Positions 12,361 to 36,694 of a DNA stretch of 64,000 nt are shown here, one piece after another. Under the pieces are notes generated by a model. It saw only the letters and a list, made by a program, of their open reading frames with translations, was not told the origin of the DNA and searched no databases. Within the stretch, counting starts at the first letter, position 1. Every line of letters starts with the position of its first letter. The position numbers and the translations under genes are program-made. This stretch comes from Escherichia phage HY03, in the sequence record NC_031047.1. One strand, 5' to 3'.

Positions 12361-12387
12361 ATTCCCGAAACCAAACGAGGATAAGTG

Positions 12388-13938
12388 ATGATTAAGAATG
12401 AAATTAAAATTCTGAGCGATATTGAACATATCAAAAAGCGTAGCGGCATGTACATTGGCTCTTCTGCTAATGAAATGCATGAGCGCTTTCTGTTTGGTAA
12501 ATGGGAAAGTGTTCAGTATGTACCTGGTCTTGTTAAGCTTATTGATGAAATTATCGATAACTCAGTAGATGAAGGTATTCGTACTAAGTTTAAATTCGCA
12601 AATAAAATTAATGTTACTATTAAAAACAATCAAGTAACAGTTGAAGATAACGGTCGCGGTATTCCACAGGCGATGGTTAAAACACCTACCGGTGAAGAAA
12701 TTCCTGGTCCTGTTGCTGCGTGGACTATTCCAAAAGCAGGTGGTAACTTCGGTGATGATAAAGAACGCGTCACTGGCGGTATGAATGGTGTTGGTTCTAG
12801 TTTGACAAACATTTTTTCTGTGATGTTTGTCGGTGAAACTGGTGATGGTCAAAATAATATTGTAGTTCGTTGTTCAAATGGCATGGAAAATAAATCATGG
12901 GAAGATATTCCCGGAAAATGGAAAGGAACTCGTGTTACTTTCATTCCTGATTTTATGTCATTTGAAACTAATGAGTTGTCCCAAGTTTATCTTGACATTA
13001 CATTAGATCGTCTCCAGACACTTGCTGTTGTTTATCCTGATATTCAATTTACCTTTAATGGTAAAAAGGTTCAGGGCAATTTTAAGAAATATGCACGCCA
13101 ATATGATGAACATGCTATCGTTCAAGAACAAGAAAATTGTTCTATTGCGGTCGGTCGTTCACCGGATGGTTTTCGTCAATTAACATACGTCAATAACATT
13201 CACACTAAGAATGGTGGTCATCACATTGACTGTGTTATGGATGATATTTGTGAAGACCTTATTCCACAAATCAAACGTAAGTTCAAAATTGATGTAACTA
13301 AAGCACGTGTCAAAGAATGTTTGACTATCGTTATGTTTGTTCGTGATATGAAAAACATGCGATTTGATTCTCAAACTAAAGAACGACTTACTTCTCCTTT
13401 TGGTGAAATTCGTAGTCATATTCAACTTGATGCTAAAAAGATTTCACGTGCTATTTTAAATAATGAAGCAATTTTAATGCCGATTATTGAAGCTGCTTTG
13501 GCTCGTAAATTGGCGGCAGAAAAAGCAGCAGAAACTAAAGCAGCTAAAAAGGCTTCTAAAGCTAAGGTTCATAAACATATTAAAGCGAATCTTTGCGGTA
13601 AAGATGCTGACACTACTCTTTTCTTGACTGAGGGTGATTCGGCTATCGGATATCTTATTGATGTTCGTGATAAAGAACTTCACGGCGGTTATCCATTGCG
13701 TGGTAAAGTTCTTAATAGCTGGGGTATGTCATATGCTGATATGCTTAAAAACAAAGAACTATTTGATATTTGCGCAATCACTGGATTAGTTCTTGGTGAA
13801 AAAGCGTTTGAAGAAAAAGAAGACGGTGAGTGGTTTACTCTCGAACTAAATGGTGATACAATTATTGTAAATGAAAATGATGAAGTACAGATTAATGGTA
13901 AATGGATAACAGTAGGTGAATTACGAAAAAATCTATAA
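12388..13938 (+). CDS. 39: DNA topoisomerase II large subunit gp39 (N-terminal ATPase part of the split gene)
   Basis: 516 aa from ATG 12388 (SD GAGGA); GHKL ATPase motifs; ends where mobA begins. Confidence 0.95.
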   Translation: MIKNEIKILSDIEHIKKRSGMYIGSSANEMHERFLFGKWESVQYVPGLVKLIDEIIDNSVDEGIRTKFKFANKINVTIKNNQVTVEDNGRGIPQAMVKTPTGEEIPGPVAAWTIPKAGGNFGDDKERVTGGMNGVGSSLTNIFSVMFVGETGDGQNNIVVRCSNGMENKSWEDIPGKWKGTRVTFIPDFMSFETNELSQVYLDITLDRLQTLAVVYPDIQFTFNGKKVQGNFKKYARQYDEHAIVQEQENCSIAVGRSPDGFRQLTYVNNIHTKNGGHHIDCVMDDICEDLIPQIKRKFKIDVTKARVKECLTIVMFVRDMKNMRFDSQTKERLTSPFGEIRSHIQLDAKKISRAILNNEAILMPIIEAALARKLAAEKAAETKAAKKASKAKVHKHIKANLCGKDADTTLFLTEGDSAIGYLIDVRDKELHGGYPLRGKVLNSWGMSYADMLKNKELFDICAITGLVLGEKAFEEKEDGEWFTLELNGDTIIVNENDEVQINGKWITVGELRKNL

Positions 13939-14734
13939 TGACTTAATAGCGCGGGGTAAAACTCGCGTTTCTAAATTTAAAGGTGAAATTCACCATATCC
14001 TTCCAAGATCAATGGGAGGTTCTGATGATAAAGAAAATTTGGTAAAACTGACTTTTCGTGAACACTTTTTAGCACATTTTCTACTATATAAAATTCATCG
14101 TAATCGTGAAATGGCATATGCGATGAATAGAATGTTAAACACTGAAAAATATTTACGTTCTAGTAAATTATATGAAATTGCTAGAATTTACCATCAAAGA
14201 GCAGTATCTGAATGGTCAAAAAACTTTATGAAAGATAAAGTTTTAATGAGAAGTATTAAATCGGGTAAATGCGCCTTATTAATTAAAGGATCATTTAACC
14301 CAAAGGAATGGTGCGGTGTTAATAAAGGTGTTAAGCTTCCTGGAATTAAAGGCATGACATGCTTTAAAAATGAAAAAGGCGAAGTTTTTCGTCTTCATGT
14401 TAATGATCCACGCATTAAAGCTGAAAAATTAGTTGGTATTGGAAATACTGTTGCTGCTACTGCAAAAGCAGCTGAACTTGAAAAAGCGAAACCATGGTAT
14501 AATAAATCAGCGACAAATCCAGAGGCTGTAAAATTAATACCAAATTTATATGAATGGTACGTCACGAAATATGACCCCGATCATTATAAACGAACGGGAG
14601 TTGCTAAATGGAAATCAGTTAATAATATAACTGTGAATTCAAAATTATTCGGCCGAGCATTTAATGAATTTAAACGCGGCTGGATTCCTGATGAAAAGTT
14701 CTACGAGGTGTATAATGAAATTTGTAAAAATTGA
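13916..14734 (+). CDS. mobA: MobA HNH homing endonuclease inserted between topoisomerase segments 39 and 60
   Basis: 272 aa, MNYEKIYNDLIARG...EIHHILPRSMGGSDDKENLV...HF HNH motif; N-terminus paralogous to mobE (46885). Confidence 0.85.
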   Translation: MNYEKIYNDLIARGKTRVSKFKGEIHHILPRSMGGSDDKENLVKLTFREHFLAHFLLYKIHRNREMAYAMNRMLNTEKYLRSSKLYEIARIYHQRAVSEWSKNFMKDKVLMRSIKSGKCALLIKGSFNPKEWCGVNKGVKLPGIKGMTCFKNEKGEVFRLHVNDPRIKAEKLVGIGNTVAATAKAAELEKAKPWYNKSATNPEAVKLIPNLYEWYVTKYDPDHYKRTGVAKWKSVNNITVNSKLFGRAFNEFKRGWIPDEKFYEVYNEICKN

Positions 14735-15247
14735 TTCTTCTAGCATTGATATGAAAAAATATAAATCGCAGAACAATGTCCGTCGTTCTATTAAATCCTC
14801 TTCAATGAACTATGCGAATGTCGCTATTATGACAGACGCAGATCACGATGGATAGCCTTCGGGCTATCTATAGAAATACCTCATAATTAAGAGATTATTG
14901 GATTAGGTTCTATTTATCCTTCTCTGCTCGGATTTTTTAGTAATTGGCCAGAATTGTTTGAGCAAGGACGAATTCGTTTTGTCAAAACTCCTGTAATCAT
15001 CGCTCAGGTCGGTAAAAAACAAGAATGGTTTTATACAGTCGCTGAATATGAGAGTGCCAAAGATGCTCTACCTAAACATAGCATCCGTTATATTAAAGGA
15101 CTTGGTTCTTTGGAAAAATCTGAATATCGTGAGATGATTCAAAACCCAGTATATGATGTTGTTAAACTTCCTGAGAATTGGAAAGAGCTTTTTGAAATGC
15201 TCATGGGAGATAATGCTGACCTTCGTAAAGAATGGATGAGCCAGTAG
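14715..15247 (+). CDS. 60: DNA topoisomerase II small subunit gp60, decoded by translational bypass: join(14715..14852,14903..15247)
   Basis: Codons 1-46 end at GGA 14850..14852 followed by TAG; decoding resumes at TTA 14903 (LGSIYPSLLGFFSNWPELFEQGRIRF...), matching recalled T4 gp60. Confidence 0.93.
14850..14905 (+). other. gene 60 translational bypass element (take-off GGA, UAG, stem-loop, 50-nt coding gap, landing GGA)
   Basis: GGA-TAG at 14850..14855; hairpin GATAGCC-TTCG-GGCTATC 14851..14868; landing GGA 14900..14902. Confidence 0.93.
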
Positions 15248-26130: not shown

Positions 26131-26787
26131 TTATTTAGCCCTTCCTAATATTCTGGCCGCCTGAGCACATATTGATTCAAGGCGGTCATTACTTATATGA
26201 TCATTTCTATACCAGTACATGGTTATTGTTCCAGCATAGATATTATCCAAATTGAAATATGGACAACTGTACATGTAGTTTATTTCGGGAGTAGGCTTTT
26301 TAGTTGGTAAAAAAGCAAATTTTGAGTCGGAATAATAATGACGTCCATTTAAATGAACTGCATATTCATCCATAGTTTTATCAACAGGATATCCTCCAAG
26401 TGATTTTTCGCTTATTGTTGAAGGTAATTTTCCTTCATATGCTATAATATCAACAAAATAGTTTAAGTTTTTAGGGCGGAAAGAATACACCGCACTAAAG
26501 TCTGCCTCAGATGATATGTGAACTATCTGGAGTTGTTCCAGGGCGACAGATTCAAAGCGTGCATTTCTTTCCTTTTCAATAATTTCACTGTATGTTTCAT
26601 ACTTTGATTGCTTATAGTACTCAAAGAAACTATCTCCCCTATACCAAACAATCGCCATCATAAATAAAAGAATTACGACAGCTACTCGGGAAGCAAGAAC
26701 CTTCCCGGTAGCGTTATCTTTGAACAAGCGATCTAGAATACCCAACAGAATATCAGAGGGCGAAAATGATATTCTAGGTGCTGCCAT
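26131..26787 (-). CDS. t: holin T
   Basis: 218 aa; N-terminal TM segment and large periplasmic domain; matches recalled T4 T. Confidence 0.93.
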   Translation of the reverse strand: MAAPRISFSPSDILLGILDRLFKDNATGKVLASRVAVVILLFMMAIVWYRGDSFFEYYKQSKYETYSEIIEKERNARFESVALEQLQIVHISSEADFSAVYSFRPKNLNYFVDIIAYEGKLPSTISEKSLGGYPVDKTMDEYAVHLNGRHYYSDSKFAFLPTKKPTPEINYMYSCPYFNLDNIYAGTITMYWYRNDHISNDRLESICAQAARILGRAK

Positions 26788-26805: not shown

Positions 26806-26813
26806 TATTTATT
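26806..26813 (-). promoter_or_regulatory. possible late promoter for t (AATAAATA, one mismatch to TATAAATA)
   Basis: Lies about 19 nt upstream of the t start codon on the - strand. Confidence 0.3.
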
Positions 26814-26817
26814 CAAA

Positions 26818-27612
26818 TTATACTCTTGGACCATATATTGCTCCAACATTTTGCCATGTTGGAGCTGATCCTATAACAGCATATCCGGCAGCGCCACCAG
26901 CTCCAACTTTTAGAACTTTACCGCCATCATGCCAGGCATTTTGTCCATTTGCGCCAGCATCACCACCCTGGCCAGAGTGAGCATTACCATAATTATAACC
27001 ACCTCCTGGGCCATCATAAGAAGCTGCGCCACCGGAATAACCTCCGCCTCCTCCTGGGCCAAATGGTCTTCCTCCACCGCCACCAATATCTTGCCACCTT
27101 GCGCCAGAGTGAGGACGATAAGCGATACCGCCACCACCGCCACCACCGCCACAAATTACTCCACCATTATTAATTCTTAATCGACCACCAATGTCATTTT
27201 GAATACAATGTCCACCCTGTTGACCATTACCATCTCCACCAGAATGAGTCCATCCACCTTGTCCACCTCTGCCCCACATATGAGCTCCACCGCTAATATT
27301 CAACTGAACATATTCATTTGGTGTATCTCCATACATGAAGAATAAAGGAACATCTCTAGAATATGATACCAAATTTCCTGTGATATTAAACACTATAGGT
27401 GCACTACCTGCCTCAAAACATCTATCTCGGAACCATTGACCATTAAAGTTATGGTCTGCTCCAAGTGTATGAATTACTTCAACAGATCGACCTATCATAT
27501 TACTCATCCAAAACGGAATTCCCATTCTCAATCTCTGCGCGGCACCACCCATCCAAGGGTCTCCAGTTTGTACCCTCGCAGACGATCCTACCCACGGTCC
27601 TGTTACTGCCAT
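26818..27612 (-). CDS. 38: gp38 tail-fibre adhesin, T2-type
   Basis: 264 aa from ATG 27612 (SD GGAGG); conserved Gly-rich islands GGGGGGG and [14 protein letters not shown] separating variable segments; unlike the short T4-type gp38 chaperone. Confidence 0.85.
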
Positions 27613-27624
27613 ATAAACCTCCAA

Positions 27625-27638
27625 GGGGCCGAAGCCCC
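27625..27638 (-). other. GGGGC-UUCG-GCCCC hairpin between gene 37 stop and gene 38 SD
   Basis: Perfect 5-bp GC stem with UUCG tetraloop on the late transcript. Confidence 0.6.
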
Positions 27639-27643
27639 TCTTA

Positions 27644-30600
27644 TTATTTTAACAACGATTTAACTAATGCTTTAAGTTCTTCGATTTCTGATTTAAGTTC
27701 TGCAATTTCTGCAGTATGCTCATTGATTGCAGCTGTATTTAAACCAATTACACCGTTATAGTTCAAACGAAGTAAAGCTTCACCATCCGGGTCACCTTCA
27801 ACTAATTCAGGCAAAATAGCTTGAACTTCTTGAGCTATCAAACCAGCGTTAGGTTCCCATTTCTGATTACCTTCTTCATCTGTTCCACGTTTCTGCATAT
27901 AAGTGTAACCGTTAATTTTAGAAAGCTTCTGAGAAGCATTTTCAAATTTAACGAGGTCTTTTTTAACGCGAATATCAGAACGGACATAAACATCACGGAC
28001 AAACGTTGAATAGCTGTCATTCGCCTGGACTAGATGACCGTGAGAAATAATCGCTTTATCAACTTCGGTCCACAAACCACCATGACTTCCCCATAGTCCT
28101 GAGTGTTCTTGATACATCGTACCCCATGATGCAATATGCTGTCCGTTAGCAAACATGTTAATACGACCATCACCACCATGAACTAATCCGGTATCATTAT
28201 CACCAATAACAAGACATGGTCCAGTCCATGCAGGGTCACCTCCACCAGCTGATAATCTTGCTCCAGTTTGAACCATGTTAGGAGCATACAGAACTCCATC
28301 GTGGTGGAATTCATATATAGCTTGCGGGTCAGAACCATTTTCCTGGTTACCTACACGAATAATACCTTGTGCCCATTTGTTAGTGATACGGCGCATACCA
28401 AAATCTACACCAGATACGTATCCTTCATTCGTAATAACAGATTTTCCTTTGATAATTGGATAATAACTATCATTACCGACGTAGCCAAAATCCACAAATA
28501 TCGGAGCTTCTTGACGCCATTGACTTCCCCAATCGCCAGCTTGGTGCGCAGTCCAGTATGCTCCATTTATATAAAGACGATCCCTATTAAAATTAAAAGT
28601 AGCAGACCCTTGAGGAGATAAAGCAATTTCTCCGACCTCATTAATGTTAACACCGCTGTTAGTTTGGAAACTGTAAAATGATATAGTATTATCGGCGCCG
28701 CCGTTACCAACATACCAGTTATCAACGCCTGCTTTTTGTCCTTTCATATAACCGGATTCGCTTGCAGCACTATTAATAACAATAACATCCGAGTTGGCAT
28801 TAAGAGTTAAACGGCCTGTCATTGTATCGCCTTCTTTCGAAACACGAGTCGCAATAGCATCGCGAATATTTGTAATGTCTCCTGCTGCAGTAAACGTTTT
28901 CCAGATATCAGACCAGATGTTACCATTGCGAGCAATAGTAGCTTCGCCGCCGCCGACAGAAACGTTATCTGGGAAGTTAACAGTACCGTCTTGATTAAAA
29001 CGAGACGTATGGCCTTGTGAACCATCTTCTTTCAGATGATGAATAACGAATGTACCAGAATTAATTTCAGTACCTAAAGACCAAACTGCTTTACCATTTA
29101 AGAATTTCTGTTTAACAATAGGATAATATTTGCTTACAGCATCATCATCAATTTCCTGGAAAATAGGAGCCGCTTGAGCATATTGAACGGCATAACCTCC
29201 AGCCCCAGCTCCATGACCAGCAAATTTAATATAGCCATTTGCTGCGAACGTATTGTAACTTGATTGTAAATCTGGAATAGTAACTTTACCAGTATCTAAA
29301 GCCATACTAAACGGGCGAAGTGGACCGATATCGCCGTGTTTACCTTCACCGTAAGCAGTTGGAATAATATGAAGACTGCCTTCTGAACGTCTAAAAATGG
29401 CTCCATAATCTGCATTCCAAATGCGAAGACCATTTACAGCATTTGTCGCGATTTCACCGGCTGCGCTGATTGTACCGTCAAATGTAGCATTTTTTACTAC
29501 TGTCAAGTTTTCATTAACAATCTGGGTGCCATTTATAACCGATTCGACTTTACCTGCAGTTGTTCGTTGAATATAACTCATCCAGCTAGTTGCATCAGAA
29601 ATTTCCATGACATTTTTGCGATTACCTTCGCTAGGATTAATAAATGTATTACCCCACACAGAAATTGTCATGTTATCCACAGAACTACTACCTGTTGTGT
29701 TACCTCTAAACATCAGCGTAGAAGAATTATTACGACCATCAATATTAACAGAACCACCAATAACGTCAATATTACCAGGAGTAACTAACAAACCGCCGTG
29801 AGTATTAATGTTTGTGACACCTTTACCGCGGAAATAGTGATGATATCTACCGCCTTGATAATATCCCAAAAGAGTCTGACCATCTCCAAACGCGTTATTA
29901 TCATGATATGTAACAACAGTAGCGAGAGCATAGTTTTCAGTAGGAGGAGTAGTTAAATCGGTTCCATTGGTAGAATATCCAGCTACAAATTTTCTTAGGC
30001 TAGTTGTTTCGCTAGGGCTAAATAAAAATGTTTTCGTTCCATTATTGACGCTGAAATAATATCCATCCTGGTGCCATTTAAATCCAGTATCATTATCCCC
30101 TAAAGCAATACTAGATGGTCCTAGTATTGAATAATCTTTATTGCCAGGTGTTAAACCGATAGAAATTGAGTGACTCGATTTAATTCCGCCGCTCCATGTA
30201 AATGACCAAAGATAAGCGTCTAGCCCATCTCCGCTGTACCAAGTTATTCCATCATTATCTTTAACTTCATGGAAAATGCCAGAACCGACTGCATTACGCA
30301 TGACACGGAGATGATTAATAGCAGTAGTGCTTTCAGACAGTGGAACATTATCTGCCATCGAATAAATGTCATAATCACCTGTAGATTTATTATTAGTAAT
30401 GACTTTGTTGGTCAAAATCTGAGGAGTTGACATAGATTTCCATGCTGATACTTCAGGTGAAGTAAATAGGCCACTACCTGAAAATGCATAAGTGCTTTCG
30501 CTACCAGCGGCGTAGTCTTGAACCCTGATATTAAGTACTTGTGTAGTTAAACCGTCATTAGCAGGAGAAAAAATAATACCGCGTTCACGGTCGGCGGAAT

Positions 30601-30973
30601 CATGAAAACGAACGTGTGCCGTTCCTGAACTTTTTGTAATAAGTTCTCCACCCTCAGTCATAATCTGCCCGGCGGCAATAATATCGCGAGTTACTCGAGC
30701 AATACCAGTTAAATTAAAATTACCTGTCTGAGTGAAAGTGCCATTTAAAGTATAATCACCAGTTTGATTATAGTTTCCTTTATGAATAACATTTCCGTCA
30801 ATACTACCGCCCTTAGCAAAACCCAGATCAATGATATTTCCTTGGTCATCTTTAGTAAAAAGTACGCGGTCTTTTAAATTTATAGCCAATTCACCTTCGG
30901 CTAATACTGAAGCGGCAGGACGTGCTCCTGCGGTTTTGCTTCTTTTAAATTGTATTTGTTTTAAAGTAGCCAT
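27644..30973 (-). CDS. 37: gp37 long tail fibre distal subunit with C-terminal intramolecular chaperone domain
   Basis: 1109 aa; N-terminus [13 protein letters not shown]...[17 protein letters not shown] matches gp37; C-terminal ~110 aa carry an S74-like signature. Confidence 0.9.
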
Positions 30974-30981
30974 AAGTCCTC

Positions 30982-31638
30982 TTAATAATAGCCGAAATCT
31001 TGAACAGAATCCTTAATAACAATTTGATCAAATCGTGGAACATGTGAGGGTTGAGATGCAGGATTCTGTGAAAAAAGGTTTGGCGCAGTTAAATTTCCTG
31101 TCATAGTATCTCCAGAGCGTAATACTCTAGAGTTTGCGTTTGCTGTAACAATATTTATTGCTCCATCAACATAATCTTTCCGTGTAAGGTCATAATTATT
31201 TACTGGTGATAATGAAGTTGCGCGTATTTGTGATGCCTCAATTACACCCTTTGAGCTAATATCTCCATTTCGCGTGTTAATTACTACAGTTCTACCCGCT
31301 GAACCCTGTGATGATTTAAAACCAATACCATACCACGAAACAATATCCATATTTGTAGTATCATACGTGGCATTATCACCAGGACCAGCAAAAATACCAT
31401 TGTCACCTGACCCTGCACCAGGAACAGTCATTCCTTTATTAAAAATTACTTTATTTAAATATGTACCACCATTAGCTTTAGAAACGAAATCGTTATCAGT
31501 TGCCTGTGGTTTATTATATTCTGAATATATTTTAAATGATTTATAGAGTACATCGTCACCGGCTGGATTCAATGGAAAATTTCCTTGATGCCAAATGACA
31601 GAGCCTCCAGTTGTTGAACCTACTTTTAAATCAGCCAT
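30982..31638 (-). CDS. 36: gp36 long tail fibre hinge connector
   Basis: 218 aa, MADLKVGSTTGGSVIWHQGNFPLNPAGDDVLYKSFKIYSEYN... Confidence 0.9.
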   Translation of the reverse strand: MADLKVGSTTGGSVIWHQGNFPLNPAGDDVLYKSFKIYSEYNKPQATDNDFVSKANGGTYLNKVIFNKGMTVPGAGSGDNGIFAGPGDNATYDTTNMDIVSWYGIGFKSSQGSAGRTVVINTRNGDISSKGVIEASQIRATSLSPVNNYDLTRKDYVDGAINIVTANANSRVLRSGDTMTGNLTAPNLFSQNPASQPSHVPRFDQIVIKDSVQDFGYY

Positions 31639-31700: not shown

Positions 31701-32816
31701 TTAAACTTCTCTAAATTCTTGTCCAAACACTTTACCAGTTTTAGACGATGCTTGCGTAGGAAGTACCATTATATCCGGAGGTGAAGCAGATTCACAGACA
31801 TAATTAACTCGAATACCATTGACGCCAAACTCAGCAGGTTTTGAAATTCCGCCATTTCTTGATACTTCAGAAAAGCTTAAATTTCTCATGCCGCCTTGAC
31901 CAGCTTGAGCAGTTCTTTGTGCATATATCGTAAATCCTACTGCATTTTCAGGAACAACTACATAGTCTTCCTTTAATTCCCATGACTCAGCTTGTCCAGT
32001 AAACTCAGCATGTGTTGAAGAAATATATCCATTCGATTCATCATAAAAACGGATAGATATATTTGTAGTTCCAAGCGCAAGTAAATCGGCATCAGCATAT
32101 AACTGTGCTTTAAGATAAAGAACATCGCCAGGAATTAAATTATAATCAGATAATTTACTTATCGCGGATGAAGTTGGTAAACGCGCAATTTCGTTATTAG
32201 TTCCACCAACCGCTGACATAAACTGCTCAACGCTTTCATATGTTCTTCTTGGAAACCCGGTAGCTCCTACATCTTCTAAACTGTCAAATACAACATCCAA
32301 AATAGTTTGATAATCATCTGTGCTTTTTCTATTACTCAGTTTAACATGCTCTAATGCGATAGCTCTTTTAGAAGAAGTATAAAAAGCAGCATATGATACG
32401 TCGAATCTTGACAATATAGAATCAGATGGAAAAGCAGACGTTCCTGCTCCCCTTAACCAAGATACTACTTCAGGAGGAAAATTAACCTTTCCGCTAGTTA
32501 ATATAGCAACAAGTCTATTGCTTGAAATAGAATTCATGAAACTAACAAAAGCAGCTGATGTAGTATCATTTGAAGTCGAAAAAGCATATGACTTACTATC
32601 AACTAATGCTCCGGTGGAAGGGTCAAAAACTCTTAAATGAAGTCCTGCGCTAAATGTTTGACTTCCGACAGGATTATCCTGAAATTTAACGTATGGTCCT
32701 GCTGTAGAAAGCGGGCAAGAACCCGCTATGCTTATTTTATATCTTACTGAATTGCTTTCCGATAAAAATGGCGTTTGGACATATCCTTGTCCAAACTCTG
32801 CCATAAATTTTTCCAT
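31701..32816 (-). CDS. 35: gp35 long tail fibre hinge protein
   Basis: 371-aa ORF between 34 and 36. Confidence 0.9.
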   Translation of the reverse strand: MEKFMAEFGQGYVQTPFLSESNSVRYKISIAGSCPLSTAGPYVKFQDNPVGSQTFSAGLHLRVFDPSTGALVDSKSYAFSTSNDTTSAAFVSFMNSISSNRLVAILTSGKVNFPPEVVSWLRGAGTSAFPSDSILSRFDVSYAAFYTSSKRAIALEHVKLSNRKSTDDYQTILDVVFDSLEDVGATGFPRRTYESVEQFMSAVGGTNNEIARLPTSSAISKLSDYNLIPGDVLYLKAQLYADADLLALGTTNISIRFYDESNGYISSTHAEFTGQAESWELKEDYVVVPENAVGFTIYAQRTAQAGQGGMRNLSFSEVSRNGGISKPAEFGVNGIRVNYVCESASPPDIMVLPTQASSKTGKVFGQEFREV

Positions 32817-32824
32817 AATACCTC

Positions 32825-35800
32825 TTATTCAACCCATTCAAATTTAACCGTTTTATTCACTGGGTCAGGAATAATGCGAACATTACCAATTCGTAAGAAA
32901 TCACGAATAGTAAGATTACCCATTATAGCATTATCAGATGGTAAAGCACCGATATCAGATGGTTGTGGAGGGTTACCTCCATCAAATACCTGAACAAAAC
33001 TTGACCAAGAGTTTTTGGTTTTCTGCCATGTACGTGTCCAGCGAGTGGTACGCGCTTCTGGCGTCGTTGGATAAGTAATCCAATCTTGGTAAAGCGAATC
33101 AAGTGTATTACCAAACTGAGTCAATGTACCAGGAGATTTAACCTCTTCACCACGTTCTAAGTATGGAAGTCCAGTCACTTCATTAGTTTTTTCAACCATT
33201 TTAAAATAACCCGGGAACTGGTTATAAGTGGCTGAATCGTTAATATCAATTGACCAGAATCCTACAGTTTCAGATGTTGGTGCACGGGTGTATAAATCAG
33301 ATGTTTTAGTACCCTGAGAACGAATTCTCGAGTTAACAGTCAAACCGCCTGAATTTATAGTAGCACCTTTGGCAATGATTAAGCTTTCACCAATTGTAAC
33401 CTGACCAGATTGATTATTAATTGATAATGGACGTAATCCATTAAATCCACCAGTCTGATCGCCAGATGCAGTAAGCATAAAATAGGTGTTAGCAGCATCA
33501 TTACGAATAAAGAATCCATAATCACCGTTTATTGCTCTAAAAGCATTCGACGATTTACTGATAAATTCGCCATTAGCAGTAACTGAACTACCGAATGTTG
33601 CAACGCCATTCGCATTCAATGTTCCTGAAGCATTCACATTTATCGGTGTTACTGTACCATTGATATTAAATGTTATATTACCAGCTTTATTGCGCTGAGA
33701 ATAAAAGTGACTAGACGTTTCATCACTAACTTCAAATACGGTAGAACGTGTTGTGTCCGATTCACCACTGAATTGATTTCCCCACACTCTGACTGTCATC
33801 GTTTGAGCCGGATTCGTTCCAGTTTGAGGTCCTTTCTCAAAAATCAGACGAGTTGCTGTTCCAGTATTAGAAATGGTTAGTGTACTATTTGCTGAAACTG
33901 ATCCACCGAACGTAGCAGTACTAGATGATACAAGAGGGGCACTCAGATTCGTTTGTTGGGTTAAGGTTAGTGAACCATTAACCGTTTGTGCAATATCCCT
34001 ACGAATGAACTGAGATGAATCTAGACCATCCAGTAAATTACTATCTACAGCTTTTGCTTTTAACGGCAAATAATTTGCTAATACACGGTTTAATTCATAT
34101 GGTGATACTGCATAGCTATTTTTCTCATACAGTTCTAAATCTTGGGTAGAACCGACTGTATCATTACCAACGAATGTAATTGAACCAGATGAAGTTTTAA
34201 CAAAGCCCCTTATCGCAGTAGTCGCTGCCCAAGTAGGTTCACTCTGCGCAATCCATTTTAAATTTTTTGGAGATACAGCAGTATTTGCTGATGTTCCAGT
34301 CACAGTTTCAGACTGAGTTGCAACTTTAATAACACCTTCTTGCGCTTCAGTAGATTTAGTACCTAAAAGCTTTTTAGGAGTTATTAAAACATTATCTAAT
34401 GTTCCTGCAGCAGCTTCGACCTGTGTAGCTACACGAAGTGTACCACGTTGTGTCTCATTTGCTTCAAGAATATTAAGGGTATAATGGTCCCAGAGAGTTC
34501 CTGATTCAACTAATCCAGATAGAGCAACAACAGAAGTACGATCAGTACTGTTAAATCTAGTTTTAATTTTTAATGGTGTAGAGATACGAGTATCGTCGAC
34601 GCCTGCGTCGAATTCAACTTGCGTAGCAATTTCAGCTATACCACTTAAACTTTCAGTTGCTCTACGGTCATTTAAAGTTTTAGGAGTGACTGCACGAGTA
34701 TAATCAGTTCCTGTATTAACTTCACTTTGCGTAGCAATTTCAATTAAACCAATTCTTGCATCAGTTGATGTCTTTTTATGTAACGTTTCTGGCGTTACAA
34801 CCGCATTTGCCCATCCTTCTTGGCTTTGTCCAGCAATTACTTCACTTTCAACTGCTAAAATTACTGCACCTTGTTGCGTTGGAGTAGCTTTATACTGATC
34901 CAGTGCTTTAGGCGAAACAACTAAATTATTAGTATTTTTATTATAAACATTTGTACCATTTAATTCACGACTAGAGGCTGGAGTAGCACCTGCAGTAGAT
35001 ACAAAAGTTACAATACCAGATAATGACTCAGAACCTTGACGAGCTTGAAGCTTTTTAGGAGTGATGATTGTAGTATCATCAGTACCTGTATTAGTTTCCT
35101 GCTGCGTAGCAATTTCAGCAACACCTCTGCGAGTTTCTGTAGCAGTTCTTTCATTCAGCTTTTTAGGAGTGATGATAAGGTCATCAGCAAAAGAGAATGT
35201 AGTGTTCTGATTTACTTGAGCAGTAGTTGCTATTCTTGCGATACCTCTACGAGTTTCTGTAGCAGTACGGTTAGCTAATGTTTCTGGAGTAATTGCTAAT
35301 TCTTTTTGTGGAGAATTTTCTAAATCGACGTTAGCTTGGGCTTGTGTAGCTAAAGCAATTACGCCTAATCTTGCTCTAGTAGAATCATTTAAAGAGTCTA
35401 CTCTTTCAACTGTTGGAACGTTTTGTTGTACAACCCAATATTTTCCATCAGAATCTTCTATATAAGCAAGCTGTAAAACTGGAACATAATTAGTTTCGCC
35501 GTTAAAAACTAATTCTTGAACAGTCACCCATTCAGCTTCAGGTGGATATTCTGAGCGTTTTGGGAATTGCAGCAATTGAACTGAAGAAGCAATTTTATCT
35601 TCACCGGCAGCTTTGATTTTAACTGTTTGGCCTTTTCTCATGTAATTCATGGAAATTTTAACAGTATCACCAACAGAAATATCAGTCGGAAGCTGAAGTT
35701 CAATTGTCTGAGCTGTTCCGTTATTCGCACCAAATACCATAACTTCTTCATTTGGACGAATATTAGAATTAGTCGTTATAATGCGTAAACGCGCTTTACT

Positions 35801-36694
35801 ATCCCCGTCAAACAATCTCCACAATTTCTCATTATCATCAAACATTAAGAAACCGTCAATCGTTGTACGGCCTTCAATGGAATGAGTTCCAACTTCTTGT
35901 ATTGAAGTCGTTTCATCGTATGTAGTAACAATTGTATGATAAAGCGGATTTAGTTTATCTAAATCGACGAAATTAATAATATCGCCATGATTAGCAAATC
36001 TTGGAAGTTTAACATTAATTGGTGCAGCAGAAGTAAATCTACGTACGATAAAATCGTTTGATTGCGCTTGATAGAGACTCGCAGGCGTTACAACTACAGC
36101 TTCTCTACTATAATCAGCGACATACATTTGCCACAGACGATTACTAAAAATTAAAACTAGCTGTGACTTTGGATGAGTCATTAGTACTGAACGTACCTGT
36201 TCACCTCTAAAGTTTACAATACTTTGCACTGGAGCTACAATTAAAACTTGGTTAACACCAGGTTTTCCTCCAATGTCTTGGAGAACGATAGTATCTCCAT
36301 CAATTGGGGAAGATGGTAAAGTAAATGTAATGTCATTACCAGCTGCAGTATCAACTGAAATTGATTCGCCTGACTTTAATTGATAAGGTCCTGATGAAAC
36401 AGTTGTCCAATTAGCATCAGTACGTAATGCTCTCCAACGTACGCTATTAAAAGCTCCTGCTGGTTTTGGAATATCATTTATAGCAGCCCAAAAGCGGTTA
36501 TCATAAATGATTACAAAATCTTTTAAATATCCACGAGTTGGATCATATTGTTGAACTGTGTTTTCTTGAATTAAGTAATCAACGTTAACACCGTCAGTTC
36601 CTACGGTACGATCAGCTAAAGCTACGTTGATTATTTTATCGCCACCTGCGTCCAGACCGTCTTCTGCTCTGAACTTTCTTTTAATCTCGGCCAT
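32825..36694 (-). CDS. 34: gp34 long tail fibre proximal subunit
   Basis: 1289 aa, same length as recalled T4 gp34. Confidence 0.93.
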   Translation of the reverse strand: MAEIKRKFRAEDGLDAGGDKIINVALADRTVGTDGVNVDYLIQENTVQQYDPTRGYLKDFVIIYDNRFWAAINDIPKPAGAFNSVRWRALRTDANWTTVSSGPYQLKSGESISVDTAAGNDITFTLPSSPIDGDTIVLQDIGGKPGVNQVLIVAPVQSIVNFRGEQVRSVLMTHPKSQLVLIFSNRLWQMYVADYSREAVVVTPASLYQAQSNDFIVRRFTSAAPINVKLPRFANHGDIINFVDLDKLNPLYHTIVTTYDETTSIQEVGTHSIEGRTTIDGFLMFDDNEKLWRLFDGDSKARLRIITTNSNIRPNEEVMVFGANNGTAQTIELQLPTDISVGDTVKISMNYMRKGQTVKIKAAGEDKIASSVQLLQFPKRSEYPPEAEWVTVQELVFNGETNYVPVLQLAYIEDSDGKYWVVQQNVPTVERVDSLNDSTRARLGVIALATQAQANVDLENSPQKELAITPETLANRTATETRRGIARIATTAQVNQNTTFSFADDLIITPKKLNERTATETRRGVAEIATQQETNTGTDDTTIITPKKLQARQGSESLSGIVTFVSTAGATPASSRELNGTNVYNKNTNNLVVSPKALDQYKATPTQQGAVILAVESEVIAGQSQEGWANAVVTPETLHKKTSTDARIGLIEIATQSEVNTGTDYTRAVTPKTLNDRRATESLSGIAEIATQVEFDAGVDDTRISTPLKIKTRFNSTDRTSVVALSGLVESGTLWDHYTLNILEANETQRGTLRVATQVEAAAGTLDNVLITPKKLLGTKSTEAQEGVIKVATQSETVTGTSANTAVSPKNLKWIAQSEPTWAATTAIRGFVKTSSGSITFVGNDTVGSTQDLELYEKNSYAVSPYELNRVLANYLPLKAKAVDSNLLDGLDSSQFIRRDIAQTVNGSLTLTQQTNLSAPLVSSSTATFGGSVSANSTLTISNTGTATRLIFEKGPQTGTNPAQTMTVRVWGNQFSGESDTTRSTVFEVSDETSSHFYSQRNKAGNITFNINGTVTPINVNASGTLNANGVATFGSSVTANGEFISKSSNAFRAINGDYGFFIRNDAANTYFMLTASGDQTGGFNGLRPLSINNQSGQVTIGESLIIAKGATINSGGLTVNSRIRSQGTKTSDLYTRAPTSETVGFWSIDINDSATYNQFPGYFKMVEKTNEVTGLPYLERGEEVKSPGTLTQFGNTLDSLYQDWITYPTTPEARTTRWTRTWQKTKNSWSSFVQVFDGGNPPQPSDIGALPSDNAIMGNLTIRDFLRIGNVRIIPDPVNKTVKFEWVE

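Follow-up and report, generated by a model that had tools for sequence, protein, structure and literature searches.

The 64,000-nt stretch of Escherichia phage HY03 DNA analysed here (NC_031047.1; hereafter the window) carries the long-tail-fibre operon of a Tequatrovirus on its minus strand. The genes follow the order 34-35-36-37-38-t, and each was assigned to a Pfam family. We examined the last two fibre genes, which correspond to the receptor-recognising end of the tail fibre. Gene 37 (27644..30973, minus strand) encodes the long tail fibre distal subunit precursor, a protein of 1109 amino acids and 119.8 kDa with matches to the Pfam families Gp34_trimer, gp37_trimer and Peptidase_S74. Gene 38 (26818..27612, minus strand) encodes a receptor-recognising adhesin of 264 amino acids and 26.8 kDa with matches to GP38 and Gp38_N. 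Gene 38 sits between gene 37 and t, and the same order is found in T2, T6, S16, RB32 and JEP6. The gene structure and the domain membership of both products were observed directly, as were the conserved motifs, the homology to solved structures and a recombination junction, all described below.

The start of gene 38 needed correction. The open reading frame (ORF) list opened the gene at a TTG at 27624, giving 268 residues, while the ATG at 27610..27612 gives the 264 residues stated in the original prediction. The TTG was dropped because it overlaps the Shine-Dalgarno sequence GGAGG (27618..27622), which lies 5 nt upstream of the ATG, and because the annotated homologues in AV119, FL08, ELT1 and wV7 all begin at the equivalent ATG. 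The gene 38 product matched GP38 (PF05268) with 231.1 bits over the complete profile (1-218 of 218) and Gp38_N (PF21721) with 74.1 bits, again over the complete profile (1-40 of 40); the cut-off was 25 bits for each. Only adhesin families were matched in the Pfam search of gene 38. The protein also aligned to PDB entry 9V85, an sfGFP fusion of the receptor-binding domain from PP01 gp38 (PMC12892980), with an E value of 1.9e-73, and over its full length to S16 gp38 (6F45_D) with an E value of 9.9e-50. In contrast, BLASTP against the 183-residue T4 gp38 gave a best E value of 0.73, with 14% identity over 50 residues, which amounts to no similarity. These searches bear out the earlier proposal that gp38 is a structural adhesin, not a T4-type chaperone; the homology placement beside the T4-type chaperone that had been named as its refutation did not occur.

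gp38's N-terminal attachment domain (residues 1-44; 27481..27612, minus strand), supported by the Gp38_N match, contains three tryptophans, W7, W20 and W35. All three were invariant across eight adhesins (window, ELT1, wV7, AV119, FL08, T6, T2 and S16), and in the S16 structure three gp38 tryptophans dock into gp37 (PMC6851490). Glycine accounts for 26% of the 268-residue ORF that begins at the TTG and for 36% within residues 111-268 of this ORF, including runs of eight, five and five. Between residues 114 and 238 (26899..27273, minus strand), glycine-rich motifs (GRMs) alternate with hypervariable segments (HVSs). By approximate parsing, and reading along the minus strand throughout, this part comprises the GRM GRGGQGG (27253..27273), HVS1 (27217..27252), the G8 motif (27127..27150), the 14-residue HVS2 (27085..27126), a 15-residue segment between HVS2 and HVS3 (27040..27084), HVS3 (26974..27039), a 10-residue segment between HVS3 and HVS4 (26944..26973), and HVS4 (26899..26943).

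The gp38 alignments took in T2, T6, S16, ELT1, wV7, AV119, FL08 and RB32. The alignment check suggested at the outset was run with T2 and T6, where the adhesin type held, and K3 and Ox2 were not among the aligned sequences. As characterised OmpA binders, RB32 (annotated 'similar to Ox2, T6, M1'), AV119 and FL08 served as stand-ins for them. In the alignments with T2, T6, S16, ELT1, wV7, AV119 and FL08, the glycine motifs GRGG, G8, GGGGGRPFG, GxGG and GGAAG were invariant and the segments between them varied, in agreement with the predicted polyglycine islands flanking variable segments. Over residues 114-238 the identity was 48% to T6, 44% to S16 and 40% to T2, and the last 26 residues were 100% identical to T6. 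This layout matches the GRM/HVS pattern of Trojet et al. (2011) as well as what has been described in S16 as a polyglycine-II sandwich. An AlphaFold2 model built from the gp38 sequence alone was unusable (pLDDT 32, pTM 0.22).

At the C-terminus of gp37, Peptidase_S74 (PF13884, 'chaperone of endosialidase') matched residues 999-1058 with 47.7 bits (cut-off 22) and an E value of 1.9e-12, covering positions 1-57 of the 58-position profile. In addition, residues 919-1109 aligned along their whole length with the gp37 construct of S16 (PDB 6F45_A; E value 5e-41). Both results support the claim that gp37 ends in an S74-like intramolecular chaperone (IMC). The span first given for this domain, 27644..27990, was about right; alignment to the S16 cleavage site places it at 27647..27979 (minus strand) plus the stop codon, corresponding to residues 999-1109 (111 residues, 12.3 kDa). 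The three gp37 motifs quoted in that prediction are present at residues 998-1007 (27953..27982), 1044-1058 (27800..27844) and 1091-1109 (27647..27703). The preceding residues 919-998 (27980..28219, minus strand), identified through the 6F45_A alignment, constitute the distal tip. This tip ends in DVYVR and is predicted to stay after processing as the docking surface for gp38. The role of a DVYIR-type strand at the gp37 tip has been described (PMC7917993).

The IMC opens with an S-D-x-R-x-K motif (S999-D-I-R-V-K1004). In a five-way alignment of the window, S16, T2, T6 and RB32, its S, D, R and K were invariant (S69, D70, R72 and K74 in the numbering of the aligned fragment). The roles of this Ser and Lys in S74 autocleavage are reportedly known from the endosialidase work of Schulz and coauthors in 2010. 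Over all 111 residues, the C-terminal helical tail included, the IMC was 56% identical to that of S16; the corresponding values were 25-29% for T2 and T6 and 27% for RB32. Because it aligns with the S16 cleavage site, the bond between R998 and S999 (DVYVR^SDIRVKK) is the predicted cleavage site of gp37. In S16 the site is DLNVS^SDRRIKK, and cleavage exposes the docking surface (PMC7917993). Likewise, gp37 of T2 and T6 undergoes C-terminal cleavage and is then capped by gp38 (Trojet et al. 2011, PMC3157838). By analogy, processing would turn the 119.8-kDa precursor of the window into a mature chain of 107.5 kDa.

The remainder of gp37 is a typical patchwork. As predicted, its N-terminus is T-even-like, the first 60 residues being more than 90% identical to gp37 of both T4 and T2. 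Identity to these two proteins was 32-35% over residues 1 to about 650, and residues 706-898 shared 55% identity with T6. The tip resembles that of S16, and gp37 as a whole was 80% identical to that of JEP6. The significant alignment with T4 gp37 stopped at residue 646 of the window protein (T4 residue 743), and in the multiple alignment the T4 C-terminus (about residues 750-1026) did not align to the tip or the IMC of the window. As the T4 similarity ends near residue 646, we concluded that the T4 receptor-binding needle is absent from this gp37.

Between the gene 37 stop codon and the gene 38 Shine-Dalgarno sequence lies a stable hairpin of the C(UUCG)G type (27623..27640, minus strand), in which GGGGC-UUCG-GCCCC is extended to 7 bp (-16.7 kcal/mol, z -2.15). 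RB32 has a hairpin, GGGGC-TTT-GCCCC, at the equivalent place between 37 and 38, and its flanks have diverged. The persistence of the hairpin in these diverged surroundings suggests a conserved RNA element, which might serve, for example, as a transcript stabiliser, a translational coupling signal or an attenuation signal.

Comparison with RB32 also revealed a recombination junction inside gene 38. Taken together, the end of gene 37 and the intergenic region showed 48% DNA identity; the value was 56% for gene 38 codons 1 to about 45 and rose to 95% from there to the stop codon. The approximate junction falls in codons 44-47, near 27477 (27472..27482, minus strand). The gp37 tip and IMC of RB32 are T6-like, while those of the window are S16-like. 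The short 'G-PW' form of the gp38 N-terminus is common to the window and S16, while T2, T6 and RB32 have 'GVPGW'. Judged by these alignments, the sharp junction parts an S16-like docking module (gp37 tip, IMC and gp38 N-terminus) from an RB32-like receptor-binding module. The junction and the different affinities of its two sides imply that two physically interacting parts, the attachment domain of gp38 and the tip of gp37, are passed on as a unit, and that the receptor-binding part moves independently of them. Exchange of this sort agrees with the modular picture already known and adds nothing new in kind. More tentatively, we consider it possible that the gp37 tip, the IMC, the hairpin and roughly the first 45 codons of gene 38 make up a single co-inherited docking cassette resembling that of S16 (Gelderlandvirus). 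This cassette might be exchanged apart from the receptor-binding part, with crossover preferred at the linker that follows the attachment domain (about 27477).

We also observed a smaller difference around gp38 residues 13-19 (27565..27576, minus strand). Here the window, wV7 and AV119 read 'ARVQTGDPW', and ELT1 and FL08 read 'AVVNTGQNW'. Outside this patch ELT1 matches the window gp38 fully, so the difference looks like a small patch exchange within the docking domain.

The gp38 of a deposited phage, ELT1, has a receptor-binding domain identical to that of the window (100% over residues 45-264), with four differences in the N-terminal domain. The wV7 protein differs at seven positions overall, of which one (R172K) lies in residues 114-238, and is 99% identical in the binding domain; no receptor assignment was found for it. 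RB32 gp38 is 90% identical overall. From residue 45 it departs only by S107G, A110V, R172K and A258V, so that beyond residue 110 just the last two remain. Over the whole protein, AV119 and FL08 are 95% and 94% identical, respectively (about 94% in the receptor-binding part), and T6 (about 69%) and T2 (45%), which use other porins, are more distant. On this evidence the adhesin belongs to the RB32/T6 lineage rather than to that of T2 itself. The proposal of a T2-like host-range determinant holds as a name for the architecture, but T2 is not the nearest lineage; the gp37 tip and IMC are closest to S16.

The receptor was predicted from the same relatives. RB32 needs OmpA and is sensitive to lipopolysaccharide (LPS), and chimeras placed its specificity in the HVS-containing segment (PMC3157838). 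For AV119 and FL08, the OmpA dependence of their 'type 1' Gp38 has been shown experimentally (Npj Viruses 2025, PMC12032242). Since the binding part of the window gp38 is nearly identical to these characterised adhesins, E. coli OmpA is its likely primary receptor, and LPS probably contributes to reception beside it. A search for the receptor of KIT03, whose gp38 is 97% identical, found nothing informative in the literature searched.

The gp37-gp38 tip of Salmonella phage S16 (PDB 6F45; Dunne et al. 2018) has the same two-gene design as the window. The cut that releases its IMC precedes SD(x)R(x)KK, and its monomeric gp38 combines a beta-helix and a polyglycine sandwich with three tryptophans for docking, a design predicted for the window gp38 too. 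S16 is also the closest phage to the gp37 tip and IMC of the window. However, it belongs to the genus Gelderlandvirus and has another host, overall identity between the two gp38 proteins is only about 50%, and its HVSs are unrelated. The window gp37 tip further carries an extra stretch of about 12 residues relative to S16. The longer tip containing GDNDTG occurs in the window, S16 and T2 and is missing from T6 and RB32. T2 and T6 have the same architecture and gene order, with gp37 processed at its C-terminus and capped by gp38.

On the adhesin side, the gp38 of RB32 and RB33, which uses OmpA plus LPS (Trojet et al. 2011), is nearly identical to that of the window from residue 45. AV119 and FL08 have the same gp37 type as the window. 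Within gp38 residues 114-238, they differ from it by P167V, R172N, D200V, G201A, N207Q, A221G and H228S, with Q174K in addition in FL08, and these substitutions may alter the range of OmpA loop variants that the adhesin tolerates. PP01 gp38 (PDB 9V85; mBio 2026) is the best-scoring solved structure, and its beta-helix region is nearly identical, but PP01 binds OmpC and its HVSs are substantially different. The IMCs of the endosialidase and T5 pb1 type (MEROPS, Pfam S74) are likewise C-terminal domains on trimeric fibres with a Ser-x4-Lys motif. Their passengers are a tailspike or an L-shaped fibre, whereas the passenger in the window is a T-even fibre tip, and cleavage here, unlike there, would also unmask a docking site for a second protein. 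The N-terminal two-thirds of T4 gp37 are homologous to the window protein (35% over about 750 residues) and encoded at the same genomic position. T4 differs in that its gp37 has a receptor-binding C-terminus of its own and no IMC, and its gp38 is an unrelated chaperone of 183 residues.

These observations make it very probable that the region encodes the distal, receptor-recognising part of the long tail fibre of a Tequatrovirus, built to the T2/T6/S16 design, with gp37 autocleavage, a gp38 cap and OmpA as the most likely receptor. No sequence feature contradicting this fibre-tip/adhesin architecture was found. In the mechanism we propose, gp37 would be made as a precursor of 1109 residues, the last 111 of which, the S74-type IMC, would aid the register and folding of the three chains. 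The IMC would then cut itself off between R998 and S999 and leave. The blunt tip of the gp37 trimer exposed in this way would be capped by one 264-residue gp38, docking by its N-terminal helical domain with the three conserved tryptophans. The hypervariable loops of gp38, carried on a polyglycine-II sandwich of glycine-rich motifs, would face the host outer-membrane protein. The autocleavage, the 3:1 stoichiometry, the presence of gp38 in virions and the identity of the receptor are inferred from characterised homologues.

Several points limit this interpretation. Processing of gp37 and incorporation of gp38 into virions would follow from what homologues do, and the polyglycine-II sandwich and beta-helix fold of gp38 are deduced from homology to 9V85 and 6F45_D. 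Two other readings were compared with this interpretation. One would make gp38 a T4-like assembly chaperone that stays outside the particle, leaving gp37 itself to bind the receptor. Close homologues such as those in wV7 and E33 do bear the database label 'distal long tail fiber assembly catalyst', but this annotation was carried over from T4, to whose gp38 the window protein has no detectable similarity (E 0.73). The full-length match to the adhesin families, the matches to two adhesins of solved structure, the end of T4 gp37 similarity near residue 646 and the resulting absence of the T4 receptor-binding needle make this reading extremely improbable. The other would have the S74-like domain as a degenerate remnant kept uncleaved in the mature fibre. 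Pfam covers just the first 60 of the 111 IMC residues, which would suit a decayed domain, and direct evidence for a retained domain was nil. However, the cleavage motif keeps its Ser and Lys, the DVY(I/V)R strand beside it is likewise intact, all 111 residues align to the S16 IMC at 56% identity through the C-terminal helical tail, and a retained IMC would block the gp38 docking surface (PMC7917993). We regard a remnant as very improbable.

The assignment of OmpA is less secure than the architecture. A single HVS substitution in RB68, Q206L, switches the receptor from OmpF to OmpW (bioRxiv 10.64898/2026.04.02.716166), and R172K is the sole HVS difference between the window gp38 and RB32. In addition, no receptor assignment was found for ELT1, the exact match to the binding part. 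The architecture could thus be as described and the receptor another one, namely Tsx, OmpC, OmpF or LPS alone. In keeping with this, three phages with closely related gp38 (97% identical), namely wV7, KIT03 and O157 typing phage 7, came from isolations on O157:H7, OmpC is the receptor of PP01, which gave the best PDB match, porin use can switch by point mutation, and the 'type 1' OmpA adhesins are phylogenetically near Tsx binders (PMC12032242). Nevertheless, identity of the aligned receptor-binding domain to PP01 is far below that to RB32, AV119 and FL08 and falls in the HVSs. Moreover, three independently characterised adhesins that are 94-99% identical in the binding domain are all OmpA-dependent. 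A different receptor is therefore unlikely in our view, and OmpA is retained as the predicted one. As a lesser possibility, R172 in HVS2 may change the dependence on OmpA variants or on LPS relative to RB32.

The other genes of the operon, all on the minus strand and assigned from the ORF list and Pfam, are gene 34 (32825..36694), gene 35, encoding the hinge protein gp35 (31701..32816), gene 36 (30982..31638) and holin t (26131..26787). Residues 58-113 of gp35 matched the Pfam family ILEI ('interleukin-like EMT inducer', PF15711) with an E value of 7e-8 and 33 bits (cut-off 27), a family one would not expect in the hinge of a phage fibre. The 30 nt that separate gene 38 from holin t contain TGAATAAATA (26806..26815, minus strand), which resembles the T4 late-promoter box TATAAATA at seven of eight positions; a strong AGGAGG ribosome-binding site comes after it. 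Across its first 25 kb the window was about 96% identical at the DNA level to deposited T4-like coliphages such as JEP6, a51 and HP3, and no record was identical. For the 37-38 segment the best DNA identity was 93.3%, to phage ELT1, and 130 records span at least 80% of the segment.

The original prediction also described the phage as a mosaic with a T4-like 39-mobA-60 cassette. This cassette is present as a T4-type split topoisomerase large subunit (12385..15247, plus strand), recognised by Pfam and by comparison with T4. Gene 39 (12385..13938) carries the GyrB and HATPase domains. An HNH-type ORF of 272 residues (13916..14734) occupies the mobA position; it is apparently intact, with a weak Pfam HNH match (E 7e-4), whereas in the T4 RefSeq record mobA is annotated as two defective fragments. 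Gene 60 is split into 14715..14852 and 14903..15247, and the frame after the gap contains TOPRIM_C. The 50-nt translational bypass gap (14853..14902), the take-off site and the hairpin correspond exactly to those of T4, with a 19-nt T4 stretch at the take-off site and hairpin matched without a difference. HP3, otherwise a close relative, has an uninterrupted topoisomerase gene without the cassette. JEP6 pairs this bypass cassette with a 1108-residue gp37, whose IMC is nearly identical, and with a gp38 of 95.5% identity. The idea that the cassette and the adhesin form an unusual pairing was dropped, as JEP6 carries the same combination. Since most T4-type phages likewise have the gp38-adhesin design (Trojet 2011, PMC3157838), the mosaic is real but ordinary.

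The fibre-tip system itself is already known, from genetics since the 1980s, crystal structures of 2018 and 2026 and receptor screens of 2025-2026. The practical yield of this analysis is the corrected start of gene 38, the predicted R998/S999 site in gp37 and the prediction of OmpA as receptor with a probable contribution of LPS. The receptor prediction can guide expectations of host range or the screening for resistance. Overall, the locus has little importance beyond annotation. The junction in gene 38 is a clean example of known modular exchange, and engineered swaps should keep the attachment domain matched to the gp37 tip. At most, the locus could become a tidy case of co-inheritance at the fibre-adhesin interface. 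If the docking cassette is real, this interface, beside the HVS loops, would be a unit of horizontal exchange between genera, and the pairing of tip and attachment domain would limit which adhesins can be engineered onto which fibres.

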